Positions 1-41,280 of a stretch of 64,000 nucleotides of DNA are shown piece after piece. The stretch's first letter is position 1. Each line of letters opens with the position of its first letter. The notes under the pieces are model-generated. The model was not told the origin of the DNA, did no database searches, and worked only from the letters and a program-made list of their open reading frames with translations. A program made the translations under genes and the position numbers. Source of the stretch: Candidatus Sungiibacteriota bacterium (GTDB taxonomy: Bacteria; Patescibacteriota; Minisyncoccia; Sungbacterales; HO2-52-23). The stretch spans positions 1,376 to 65,375 of the forward strand of contig JACQRW010000024.1 of assembly GCA_016206285.1 (NCBI GenBank). The letters are read 5' to 3'.

Positions 1-196
1 ATGTGGCATATGCCAAAGAGTTTTTGTCGCCATACAGCACATGGAGACCGTGGAGCGAGCACAGCGGGACTGGCTATCACAAAGACACTCCGCCGTTCCT
101 GTCCGTGTGGCTTATGATTCTTATAGACAACACGATGCACATCATGATCAATGCTGTTGCATTAACCTGCTTCTAGTCTCCCCCATACACAGTAAA

Positions 197-1775: not shown

Positions 1776-2132
1776 TTATCTCATTATCTCCGTCTCAAAC
1801 CATTGCTCCTGAAAGTGGATTGCCGATATTATTTGTACATCGGTCATCTCCACTCCGCGCGGCACGACGATCAGCTTGTCATCGTCATCATTATTGCGAT
1901 GCGCTATCGCGATGCACATGCCTTTTGCCAGTTGCATCGGTTCGTTTATGCCAAGGTAATACACATCCAAATCCTCGCCATCCGGAGCTTGTACTCCCTC
2001 AATAAAACCATAATTCACTTCATACACAAACCCGTGCTTCGGATGCCTGGATCCAAGCGGCCGGTCAATCACCACCTCGACTTCTTTTCCAAGATACTCC
2101 CTCGCCAGTTGCAATGATTTTGTTTCCTCCAT
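1776..2132 (-). CDS. ppa: Inorganic pyrophosphatase (short family I type)
   Basis: IDRPLGSRHP, YEVNYG, DGEDLDVY and DDDDKL motifs. Confidence 0.8.
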   Translation of the reverse strand: MEETKSLQLAREYLGKEVEVVIDRPLGSRHPKHGFVYEVNYGFIEGVQAPDGEDLDVYYLGINEPMQLAKGMCIAIAHRNNDDDDKLIVVPRGVEMTDVQIISAIHFQEQWFETEIMR

Positions 2133-2136
2133 AATG

Positions 2137-2322
2137 TTAAACACTCGGTGTTGCACAAATAGAATCAAAATTCACCGGAGAAGTATCAGCACGCTTTGGT
2201 CGAAATACTTTTACGACCCCGTCAAAATCATCATGAATAAACGCGCAAGCCGTAATGACTTGCTGCCCCTGCGCCGGTATTTCGCTGTCGTGTGAGATTG
2301 GGGTTAGCATTTGATTTATCAC
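2137..2322 (-). pseudogene. Truncated NUDIX hydrolase N-terminus
   Basis: QQVITACAFIH..KVFRPKRADT resembles a NUDIX N-terminus, but the ORF ends before any Nudix box. Confidence 0.5.
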
Positions 2323-2443
2323 TGTTGCATTTCCGCATCTATTCTCTTGTCAAAATGATGACCTTTTTACTGCAAGGAAAGTCAGATTTTGTATACAGCT
2401 TGATACTTTGATTTTTCTATTTCCCATTGCTATACTGCTCATT

Positions 2444-2923
2444 ATGGAGGATATATCCGATTATCACAAGTTACGGGATGTCACACAAAAGTTTTATAGT
2501 GGGATCGGCATAATACGATCTCCAGCTCTCAATGATTCAGTCCATTTCACCGCCGAGGGTTTCAATCATATCATTTTCAAAGGTTCGCGCTCCGAGCGAG
2601 AGAAACCCTCGCAAATTCTCCGGTTCAAACTCTTACCGCTTGCCGCAAAACTCATCGGTCTCTCAACAACTCATCAAGAATTTGAGGAAACAATCAAAGA
2701 GTTTGAAGTCAAAAGCTACAAGAAGCGTGTCCGGCAATCAAAGCGGGTGCGCTACTGGGGAATTATTGCCATCATTGAAGGCAGGAAGATAAAAGTCATT
2801 GTACGAAGAATAGGCGAAAACGGAGCATTACACTTTTGGAGCATTGTACCGGCATGGACTACAAACAAATACAGAGACATCAGGTTCTTCACAACCATGA
2901 AAGGCAATCCAGACGAAGATTGA
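2444..2923 (+). CDS. Putative BECR/PBECR-fold (Barnase-EndoU-ColE5/D-RelE-like) ribonuclease
   Basis: Basic 159 aa protein; VHFTAEGFNHI...RFKLL...IKVIVRR..G..HFWSIVP pattern; family assignment is inferred. Confidence 0.5.
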   Translation: MEDISDYHKLRDVTQKFYSGIGIIRSPALNDSVHFTAEGFNHIIFKGSRSEREKPSQILRFKLLPLAAKLIGLSTTHQEFEETIKEFEVKSYKKRVRQSKRVRYWGIIAIIEGRKIKVIVRRIGENGALHFWSIVPAWTTNKYRDIRFFTTMKGNPDED

Positions 2924-2925
2924 AA

Positions 2926-3014
2926 TCAAAAATGCCGCCGTCAGGCGGTATCTTTGATGTGCCTGCCGTCGGCTTATGAATTAGCCGAATAGGGCTGACG
3001 CCCCACAAGCACAT
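2926..3014 (-). ncRNA. Candidate structured small RNA convergent on the nuclease gene
   Basis: Minus-strand promoter TTGTAC-17-TGaTATACT; predicted three-way junction plus intrinsic terminator. Confidence 0.55.
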
Positions 3015-3018
3015 TTGT

Positions 3019-3047
3019 AGTATATCACATGCGAGGGAGGAGTACAA
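3019..3047 (-). promoter_or_regulatory. sigma70 promoter with extended -10
   Basis: -35 TTGTAC (3047-3042), 17 nt spacer ending TGa, -10 TATACT (3024-3019). Confidence 0.6.
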
Positions 3048-3205
3048 GAGAGAGTATAAATTCACTACGTTTTCGGCTTCGTACTATAGCGAGAGTATTC
3101 GTAGTCATTTTTCTTTGAATTAAAATGGCCAGTACTAAAGGATGGATAATCATTACCTCTTTCGGAGACTTTTACTCTACCATTTTTGACGCTCCTCGAA
3201 ACGCT

Positions 3206-3772
3206 TTATTTATCGCCAATTACTTTACCTTTTATGGATTTCATTAATGGGAAAATATAAAGCCCTGCGCCAATCAGTAAGGACATCATTAAAATTGAAA
3301 TGGAAACACAGGTCTCAGGAGTTCCGTGAAAGACGAACACATACAGATTGGAAATTACAGAGAAAATATAAGCATATATAAATGACTTTGTAATATTATT
3401 CCAAACCATGACTGAGTCATGATTTGGAACAGTTATACGCCATACTATATCTAAATATTCCGTTCTATTTTTTAGAATTTCAGTTTCCAGCCATGAACCG
3501 GAGGAAGCAAATGGATGGCTCTTAACAATTGAGCTAATCCTGAGCGATGCAGGAAAATATGTAAAAATAGCGATCGCTAATAGCCATAAGGTCCAAGACA
3601 AGAAATGTAGTAAGTATGAAGCGTTAGAGATAAGCTGAGGAAGAAAAGAAAGCAGACCTGCGATTGTCAGCATGACTCCAATCCTGCTCGTTTGATCAGA
3701 TTGAATCGCTCGAATATTTTCGAGTTGCTCATTAAAGAATGCTATTTTTTGTTTGTATATATCATCCTCCAT
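3206..3772 (-). CDS. AT-rich multi-TM hypothetical protein
   Basis: 188 aa ORF with about 4 hydrophobic segments, next to the tRNA-Gln 3' end. Confidence 0.65.
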   Translation of the reverse strand: MEDDIYKQKIAFFNEQLENIRAIQSDQTSRIGVMLTIAGLLSFLPQLISNASYLLHFLSWTLWLLAIAIFTYFPASLRISSIVKSHPFASSGSWLETEILKNRTEYLDIVWRITVPNHDSVMVWNNITKSFIYAYIFSVISNLYVFVFHGTPETCVSISILMMSLLIGAGLYIFPLMKSIKGKVIGDK

Positions 3773-3813
3773 ATTTTTATGGCTCCTCGGAGTTCGAACC
3801 TATATCAAATTTG

Positions 3814-3884
3814 CTGCGGGACTAGGATTCGAACCTAGATTAACGGATTCAGAGTCCGCTGGCCTGCCGTTAGCCGATCCCGCA
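3814..3884 (-). tRNA. tRNA-Gln(CUG)
   Basis: Cloverleaf; anticodon arm CGGA-CT CTG AA-TCCG; GTTCGAATC T-loop. Confidence 0.93.
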
Positions 3885-3948
3885 ATGAAATAAAATTGCC
3901 TTATACAGGCAATTTTATCGTAGCACATTATTTGAAAAAATCCAACAA

Positions 3949-41172: not shown

Positions 41173-41280
41173 ACGTTATCCACAGATGATTTTTGACATG
41201 GCATCGGGTATACTGAAAGCACTAGAGAAGTTATGTACTCTGCCAAAGGTCGAAGTATTTTCATGACCAAAAAATATAAA

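Follow-up and report, generated by a model that had tools for sequence, protein, structure and literature searches.

What does a small structured RNA do when its gene runs tail to tail into that of a basic, nuclease-like protein? The question is raised by a 64,000-nucleotide (nt) stretch of the genome of a Candidatus Sungiibacteriota bacterium (GenBank assembly GCA_016206285.1, contig JACQRW010000024.1, positions 1,376 to 65,375), referred to below as the window, in which a protein gene converges with a predicted small RNA (sRNA) gene on the opposite strand. An earlier note, made from the letters of the window and a list of its open reading frames (ORFs), had described the pair as a candidate RNA-antitoxin system. 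We find that the RNA and the protein gene belong together across deep divergence and, from comparison of related sequences, that the RNA is a covarying three-way junction. The reading that we favor, with a probability of roughly 40%, is that of a toxin-antitoxin (TA)-like module in which the junction RNA would neutralize the BECR-like, ribonuclease (RNase)-like protein directly, following the logic of type III systems.

Pairing of the gene with a convergent RNA

A search with the window protein returned 640 relatives at E ≤ 0.001. The best 120, drawn from many candidate phyla within Patescibacteria, are 158 to 176 amino acids (aa) long and 70 to 100% identical. The close set comprised 60 species-representative loci (L002 to L061); two fragmentary protein matches (L062 and L063) were excluded from all counts, and the RNA of L020 duplicates that of L019. 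In 59 of the 60 loci, the stop codon is directly followed by the same RNA, encoded on the other strand, the lone locus without it being L030 (see below). A covariance model, R1, was built on the close set alone and then searched against 28 distant paralog loci (27 to 45% protein identity). It matched in 22 of them at E < 0.01, each time downstream of the gene, in convergent orientation and 3 to 41 nt past the stop codon. When the opposite downstream strand was folded at the six loci missed by R1, a three-way junction beside a promoter could be read by eye in five; the fold at the sixth, L080, gave no clear three-way junction.

Searching 151 genomes with the RNA alone yielded 12 matches, 10 of which adjoin a gene of the family; one is an orphan, and the remaining match lies within a pilus-operon coding region and is probably false. 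At protein identities ranging from 88% to as low as 27%, and in differing genomic contexts, gene and RNA retain their adjacency and relative orientation, and all four protein genes with internal stops still have the RNA. Across deep divergence, the RNA is near-obligately paired with the gene family. Bidirectional terminators are common between convergent genes, and an independent sRNA gene could merely share one with its neighbor, without any functional link. However, such conservation of the arrangement in different contexts, and the return of the gene family by a search that started from the RNA, make this most improbable. No protein partner is conserved at these loci: the 114 nearest upstream and downstream ORFs of the 60 loci share no recurrent family, in agreement with the earlier note, which had seen no adjacent protein antitoxin.

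In the window, the gene has the same start and length as its homologs (coordinates in Table 1). The last base of its −10 box lies 7 nt ahead of the ATG. A TANNNT box ending 5 to 9 nt ahead of the start codon occurs in 45 of 58 related loci, against a background of 9.6%, and a Shine-Dalgarno-like 4-mer ahead of the start in one of 58. With the −10 box so near the start codon and almost no Shine-Dalgarno-like 4-mers, the protein mRNA is predicted to be leaderless. The minus-strand promoter described by the earlier note is present, with TTGTAC at 3047-3042, a 17-nt spacer, TG at 3027-3026 and TATACT at 3024-3019. A consensus promoter scan did not list it, because its −35 hexamer matches TTGACA at just three of six positions. 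The site is kept in relatives: TTGNNN-16..18-TANNNT is found there in 51 of 59 distinct loci, and in those with the promoter the −10 box ends 4 nt ahead of the RNA alignment.

The two genes share an intrinsic terminator. The U run of the sRNA stops 2 nt short of the stop codon of the gene, so that the terminator does reach the gene's end much as the earlier note had proposed. Terminator-like hairpins were found by the consensus scan on either strand (2932-2951 and 2948-2935), and in 59 of 60 related RNAs the junction is succeeded by a hairpin (ΔG ≤ −8) with a U4 run. In the window, this fully complementary segment of about 33 nt is the sole overlap between the two predicted transcripts; some relatives probably overlap more.

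Structure of the RNA and an antisense alternative

Folding of positions 3016-2920 on the minus strand gave a three-way junction and then the terminator at −45.6 kcal/mol (z = −6.55; 0 of 200 shuffles equaled it), an exact match to the closing stem, two hairpins and terminator drawn in the earlier note. The plus strand of the same stretch folds more weakly (z = −5.30). In the close set, 99.2% of 1,121 helix cells are paired, versus 32 to 47% with the partners slid, and just 7 cells carry changes on both sides of a pair because the sequence is so conserved. In 27 diverse sequences, whose alignment was fitted to the covariance model and hence biased toward structure, 96.7% of 508 cells are paired (29 to 50% when slid), and 16 of 19 base pairs show compensatory, both-side changes, in 61 cells. 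No shuffle among 500 attained any covariation measure of this diverse alignment, and the slid controls and the compensations read by hand in L056 point the same way as the model-fitted alignment. The check for covariation downstream of homologs that the earlier note had called for was borne out. The minus strand carries 213 G-U cells, which would be A-C mismatches on the plus strand, versus 9 nonstandard cells, a reading of the pairs that settles the RNA strand as minus. As judged from these alignments, the junction RNA is a genuine, strand-specific, covarying structured RNA.

At the gathering score, Rfam recognized tRNAs only in the whole window and nothing at the sRNA; at E ≤ 10 over 2300-3300, it returned merely two chance-level rows (E of 4 to 9). 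The sRNA is an undescribed RNA, with no Rfam family. Among its members, P2 is capped by GUCA, GCAA, GGUA, UUCG or UUUG, and the P3 loop is 4 to 18 nt long; going by these sequences, the loops vary and the junction shape is the feature that is kept. An sRNA-encoded peptide was ruled out, as the 5′ AUG is not conserved and 1-nt insertions or deletions occur in the loops, and the RNA is without an ORF as the earlier note had stated.

The shared terminator raises the possibility that the sRNA acts on the mRNA, in the manner of a type I system, with a duplex at the 3′ ends triggering decay or blocking expression. Merely 3 to 13 nt separate the stop codon from the junction in six distant loci, where the mRNA probably reads into the sRNA gene, and the ORF as listed of a PemK-like gene in this genome (see below) runs antisense through its sRNA. 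However, the overlapping terminator is the least conserved part of the RNA and varies freely, whereas the junction, which lies outside the mRNA overlap in the window, is the most conserved part and covaries. The stable P2 tetraloops, of UUCG or GNRA type in many members, would suit scaffolds better than kissing loops. Outside the overlap, no cognate-specific complementarity was seen: cognate sRNA-mRNA duplexes were no better than noncognate ones in the 5′ region (p = 0.63) or in the coding sequence (p = 0.21). Finally, an mRNA predicted to be leaderless would offer no 5′ untranslated region as a target.

Type I toxins are small hydrophobic peptides, and type I RNAs act by base pairing. Some type I loci are convergent and overlap at their 3′ ends, namely, par RNA I/RNA II of pAD1 and txpA/RatA and bsrG/SR4 of Bacillus subtilis. 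The present locus is like them in that its transcripts converge and share a bidirectional terminator. It differs from them in the conserved part of its RNA, outside the overlap, and in its product, a soluble, basic and nuclease-like protein of 159 aa that is unlike typical type I peptides. Taken together, we consider an antisense mechanism unlikely.

Protein family, genomic context and parallel loci

The window protein matched no Pfam family at E ≤ 1, the PBECR1 to PBECR5 models included. Its relative P0059 scored 26.9 bits against LPD3 (PF18798), for which the gathering cutoff is 27, and the second copy in this genome scored 25.6 bits. Twenty of 81 diverse family members match LPD3 at E ≤ 0.01, and no PBECR is among the four Pfam families that the 81 members match at this threshold. 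By these scores, the protein family is a neighboring branch of LPD3 and not a scored member of it. LPD3 occurs in the polyvalent proteins of phages and conjugative elements; the part of the describing paper available to us reports it alongside PBECR nuclease domains and assigns it no function (Iyer et al. 2017, PMC5512222). Searching 1.84 billion representatives with a profile gave 1,090 clusters (50% identity) at E ≤ 0.001, the best 150 of which are all at most 220 aa; on this profile evidence, the family is large and stand-alone. Residues H42, R52 and Q78 are invariant in the 81 members, and the window protein is basic, with an isoelectric point (pI) of 9.9. PHROGs and NCBIfam gave nothing beyond noise (E > 0.01), neither cultured phages nor PLSDB plasmids gave a tblastn match to the protein, and a pattern scan of IMG/VR with alignment A2 gave 12 pattern matches, none of which was confirmed.

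Two AlphaFold models, with predicted local distance difference test (pLDDT) values of 84.8 and 90.7, depict soluble, mixed alpha/beta proteins with N-terminal helices followed by a long antiparallel sheet. In a fold search independent of Foldseek, BECR RNase toxins came top for both models, with weak Z values of 3.5 to 5.6 that all fall below the caution line of 8; the top matches include RelE/ParE, CdiA-CT, RegB, BrnT, MqsR and colicin D/E5. The top nine rows for the better model are all BECR toxins, led by CdiA-CT 6cp9_A (Z 5.6, root mean square deviation 4.0, 97 residues aligned) and followed by 7vd7_A (Z 5.0), 7m5f_C (4.8), RegB (4.5), RelE1 (4.4), BrnT (4.3), RelE (4.3), MqsR (4.2) and ParE (4.0). 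The matches span the helices-then-antiparallel-sheet core, approximately residues 30 to 140. Since the Z values lie under the caution line, we call the fold BECR-like and not proven. LPD3-named phage domains of BFVD match the model with probabilities of 0.97 to 1.00 and template modeling (TM) scores of 0.41 to 0.45. The BECR-like nuclease of the earlier note stands in part: the top fold matches and the automatic Atlas cluster name of the protein, PBECR2-like, agree with it, at low Z values and without a Pfam match.

The family is present in 29 of 401 Patescibacteria genomes searched. Only two copies, one in the source genome (G000) and one in G130, are more than 70% identical, all others being at 27 to 45%. 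The source genome, of 754 kb, holds two gene-RNA pairs and one orphan RNA. Neighbors of the loci include EF-G, LysRS, enolase, MreB, serine and tyrosine integrases, HepT, NERD and a type I restriction enzyme. In about 10 of 61 loci, a tRNA gene lies no more than 1 kb past the RNA promoter, as tRNA-Gln (3813-3884) does in the window, and a serine integrase or its tail adjoins the gene in 5 of 61 sequences searched. The module is patchy and lies in variable, often island-like contexts.

These contexts bring up another role: serine-integrase islands at tRNA genes would carry the pair as cargo or use it as a control unit, and integration or excision would be regulated by the RNA. The integrases, integrase tails and fusion of Table 1 and the nearby tRNA genes fit such a role. 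However, integrase similarity is confined to those five sequences, most neighbors are unrelated housekeeping genes, and the RNA is retained beside distant paralogs whose surroundings are quite different, which makes a function in element maintenance very unlikely.

Table 1. Positions of the features discussed; numbers without a locus handle are window positions
Feature	Position	Strand	Description
Protein gene	2444..2923	+	From ATG; 159-aa basic protein, stand-alone, at the edge of LPD3, predicted BECR-like fold
Protein-gene promoter-like site	2408..2436	+	TTGATT-17-TATACT with TG; consensus promoter scan
sRNA promoter	3019..3047	-	TTGTAC-17-(TG)TATACT; read from sequence, position kept in relatives
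Whole sRNA, predicted	2927..3013	-	About 87 nt; ends estimated from the −10 box position and the terminator U run
Three-way-junction core	2959..3012	-	Fold, covariance model R1 and alignments; window copy 84 bits
P1	3012-3005 with 2966-2959	-	GUGCUUGU / GCAGGCAC
P2	3004-2991	-	GGGGC-GUCA-GCCCU, GUCA loop
P3	2988-2969	-	UCGGCU-8 nt-AGCCGA, 8-nt loop
Shared bidirectional intrinsic terminator	2925..2957	both	Consensus scan and fold
Serine integrase	L016:1312-2988		Full; ends 13 nt ahead of the gene
Integrase-tail remnant	L022:2580-2687		Near the gene
Integrase-tail remnant	L045:2590-2700		Near the gene
Gene-integrase fusion	L030:3001-4314		Gene fused in frame to integrase tail; RNA lost
Integrase	L048:1272-2765		Nearby
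TTATCCACA sites	41176-41196; G000 C6 (two), C7, C10, C14, C15, C23	+ (window site)	

In the window, the GC content dips to 0.37-0.44 over 2100-3900, compared with about 0.47-0.55 outside, and this low-GC islet spans the stretch from a pyrophosphatase-like ORF through tRNA-Gln. The former, a short inorganic-pyrophosphatase-like ORF (1776-2168, minus strand; PF00719, 2.5e-6), lies upstream of the module and has a faint match to InPase (PF18823, 0.029), another domain described in phage polyvalent proteins. A membrane-like 188-aa ORF without annotation (3206-3772, minus strand) also lies in the islet. Just past the 3′ end of tRNA-Gln, a 16-nt partial copy of its T-arm region (3793-3808) begins 35 nt from the start of its counterpart (3828-3843); beyond that copy, no direct repeat of tRNA-Gln was found that could mark the far end of an island. 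Six groundwater DNA sequencing runs contain the stretch or part of it. In another locus, L046 (3001-3480), the gene has an in-frame TGA at codon 106, where all other members have an invariant Gly, which suggests that the host reads TGA as Gly (code 25); the sequence record is titled as a gammaproteobacterium, at odds with this code.

Directly upstream of the sRNA −35 hexamer, many relatives carry TTATCCACA, of which the window copy is a poor match. The box occurs with at most one mismatch in 17 of 60 loci and with at most two in 28, the backgrounds being 0.9% and 9.4%, respectively. When followed after 4 to 9 nt by TTGA, it is found at 8 sites in the 754-kb genome, the reversed control giving none. 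A −10 box comes after most of the eight, and six precede short noncoding RNAs that end in a terminator. A module-specific tie to DnaA through this box was weakened by its association with a −35 hexamer at eight promoter-like sites genome-wide. Going by these sites, TTATCCACA looks like a general promoter element and may mark a promoter class in the ultra-small bacteria of the Candidate Phyla Radiation (CPR).

At one of these promoters, a PemK/MazF-like toxin gene (G000:C10:21457-21945, equal to L099:1501-1989; Pfam E = 4.6e-11) converges with an sRNA that overlaps the ORF as listed. The PemK-like family is multicopy in 31 of 301 genomes. Among 20 of its loci (L113 to L132), 17 have an opposite-strand promoter and a conserved two-hairpin RNA, against one of 20 on the control strand, and no consistent upstream antitoxin ORF was found in the 20. 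By analogy, this design makes an antidote role of the junction RNA more credible, and it suggests a wider habit of CPR genomes.

Other RNAs were seen around these promoters. The orphan junction RNA of the source genome (G000:C15:31298-31349, plus strand, equal to L094:1501-1552; 42.7 bits, fold z = −4.79), the third copy there, lacks an LPD3-like neighbor. Immediately after it come a TTATCCACA-TTGACT-17-TATACT promoter and a second hairpin-plus-terminator RNA (L094:1564-1690, fold z = −4.72), which converges with a gene for an NYN-domain (PIN-like RNase) protein (L094:1797-2252, minus strand; Pfam 5.7e-19). At three sites, L096/L097 (G000:C6), L100 (C14) and L103 (C23), a box-promoter sRNA with a terminator is largely complementary to a same-strand stretch just downstream, which ends, as read by eye, in a T-arm-like hairpin and ...GCCA. 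From its sequence, this element could be a split or inverted-repeat tRNA-like RNA.

The toxin-antitoxin reading and what it would mean

In the TA-like module that we favor, the protein is predicted to be an RNase whose free form would harm the cell. The sRNA would be made from its own strong promoter, and its junction core would bind the protein and hold it inactive, without pairing to the mRNA. The protein would be released if the module were lost or if transcription were shut off, as a phage might do. Direct neutralization is favored by the selection on the nonoverlapping junction together with the lack of cognate complementarity. On the side of the RNA and the loci, the support consists of the pairing, the structure under selection, the strand, the lack of a conserved protein partner and the TA-like distribution. 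On the side of the protein, the predicted models, in which BECR toxins are the top structural rows, may be counted in its favor along with the basic pI and the three invariant residues. Self-contained, patchy, multicopy and in variable or island contexts, the module appears to behave like an addiction or defense unit. The earlier note had offered two roles for the RNA, decoy or inhibitor. The former found no support in the sequence: the RNA has no likeness to any rRNA or tRNA of the genome beyond 10- to 11-nt chance matches, and a blastn-short search of the whole genome with the 56-nt junction gave just 10- to 14-nt chance matches.

Alternatively, a protein that is not a toxin could bind or process the junction RNA or use it as a substrate, cofactor or scaffold, in a ribonucleoprotein devoted to RNA processing or repair or serving as a defense sensor or effector. 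The RNA would then be a partner and not an antidote. The pairing and covariation speak for such a particle as much as for a TA-like module. LPD3 is without known function in the available part of PMC5512222, the protein is basic, and the sRNA promoter belongs to the TTATCCACA-box class, whose sites mostly (6 of 8) precede short terminator-ended RNAs. However, a patchy, multicopy and island-linked spread, broken protein genes and an orphan RNA, all found here, typify selfish or defense modules and not housekeeping ribonucleoproteins; the best fold matches are toxins, and a recognized toxin family, PemK-like, has the same design. We regard a ribonucleoprotein with another job as rather unlikely.

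Several observations weigh against the TA-like module. In L030, residues 1-154 of the protein are kept, fused in frame to an integrase tail, and the RNA is gone. The junction abuts the stop codon in several distant loci, with no separate terminator, and the mRNA there probably runs antisense through the sRNA gene, as would suit an antisense mechanism. No significant relation was found between the length of the basic hairpin of the protein and that of the P3 loop (rho = −0.33, p = 0.10, for 26 nonindependent loci). The BECR matches of the models are weak, with Z at most 5.6, and the check by fold proposed in the earlier note came out divided: Foldseek against the PDB gave nothing at E ≤ 0.001, and the other fold search ranked BECR toxins first, weakly. 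A profile of the 81 members found no match among PDB sequences at E ≤ 10, hence no solved relative. PADLOC gave faint PDC-M04B matches only, in three of five proteins (E of 0.004 to 0.02).

Among known systems, those of type III (ToxIN, CptIN and TenpIN) combine an RNase-type toxin with a structured RNA inhibitor, according to the available parts of the descriptions (PMC8860590, PMC5086642, PMC13682666). The present module is like them in its predicted RNase-type protein, its structured noncoding RNA, its lack of a protein antitoxin and its mobile, patchy occurrence. In type III, the toxin processes its antitoxin, a tandem repeat array that lies upstream of the toxin gene and on its strand; here, in contrast, a single-copy three-way junction has its own promoter and lies downstream, on the opposite strand. 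The proteins also differ: that of the window is LPD3/BECR-like, with no Pfam family at the threshold given above, and the type III toxins are of the ToxN, CptN and TenpN endoRNase families. Thus, judging from its organization, the module would work most like type III and yet fails the defining anatomy of that type.

The comparison with BECR RNase toxins is likewise mixed. They are the best, though weak, structural matches of both models; no PBECR Pfam family or solved chain matches in sequence, and BECR toxins are neutralized by proteins, either antitoxins or immunity proteins, and not by RNA. LPD3 itself is linked to the family by the 20 matching members and the BFVD domains. Unlike the LPD3 of polyvalent proteins, the domain here stands alone with an RNA partner, and no RNA is mentioned in the available part of PMC5512222. 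In the literature covered, taken as articles without their supplements, we found no account of this RNA, of an RNA partner for LPD3 or PBECR proteins or, in CPR bacteria, of toxin genes paired with convergent sRNAs.

There is a real chance that the module represents a new TA class. It is possible, but doubtful, that an undescribed class exists in CPR bacteria, in which unrelated RNase toxins (LPD3/BECR-like, MazF/PemK-like and perhaps NYN) each have a dedicated, convergent structured sRNA as antidote. The antidote of such a class would come from its own strong promoter and would be neither a protein nor a repeat array.

The immediate outcome is a new family of structured RNAs that covaries strongly and accompanies a protein family of about 1,090 clusters. 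Two small constructs would allow a direct test of the antidote claim in Escherichia coli. Should the RNA prove to be an antidote, the locus would represent a new TA architecture, in which a BECR-like toxin is countered by a convergent junction RNA, present as a single copy and made from its own promoter; no earlier RNA inhibitor of a BECR-fold nuclease would then be known. Such a compact pair of RNA inhibitor and RNase would also be of use for tool building. By pointing to RNA binding or cutting, it would open a first way into the function of LPD3, a domain that phages and conjugative elements inject. Taken with the PemK-like case, it would suggest that sRNAs often stand in for protein antitoxins in genome-reduced CPR bacteria.

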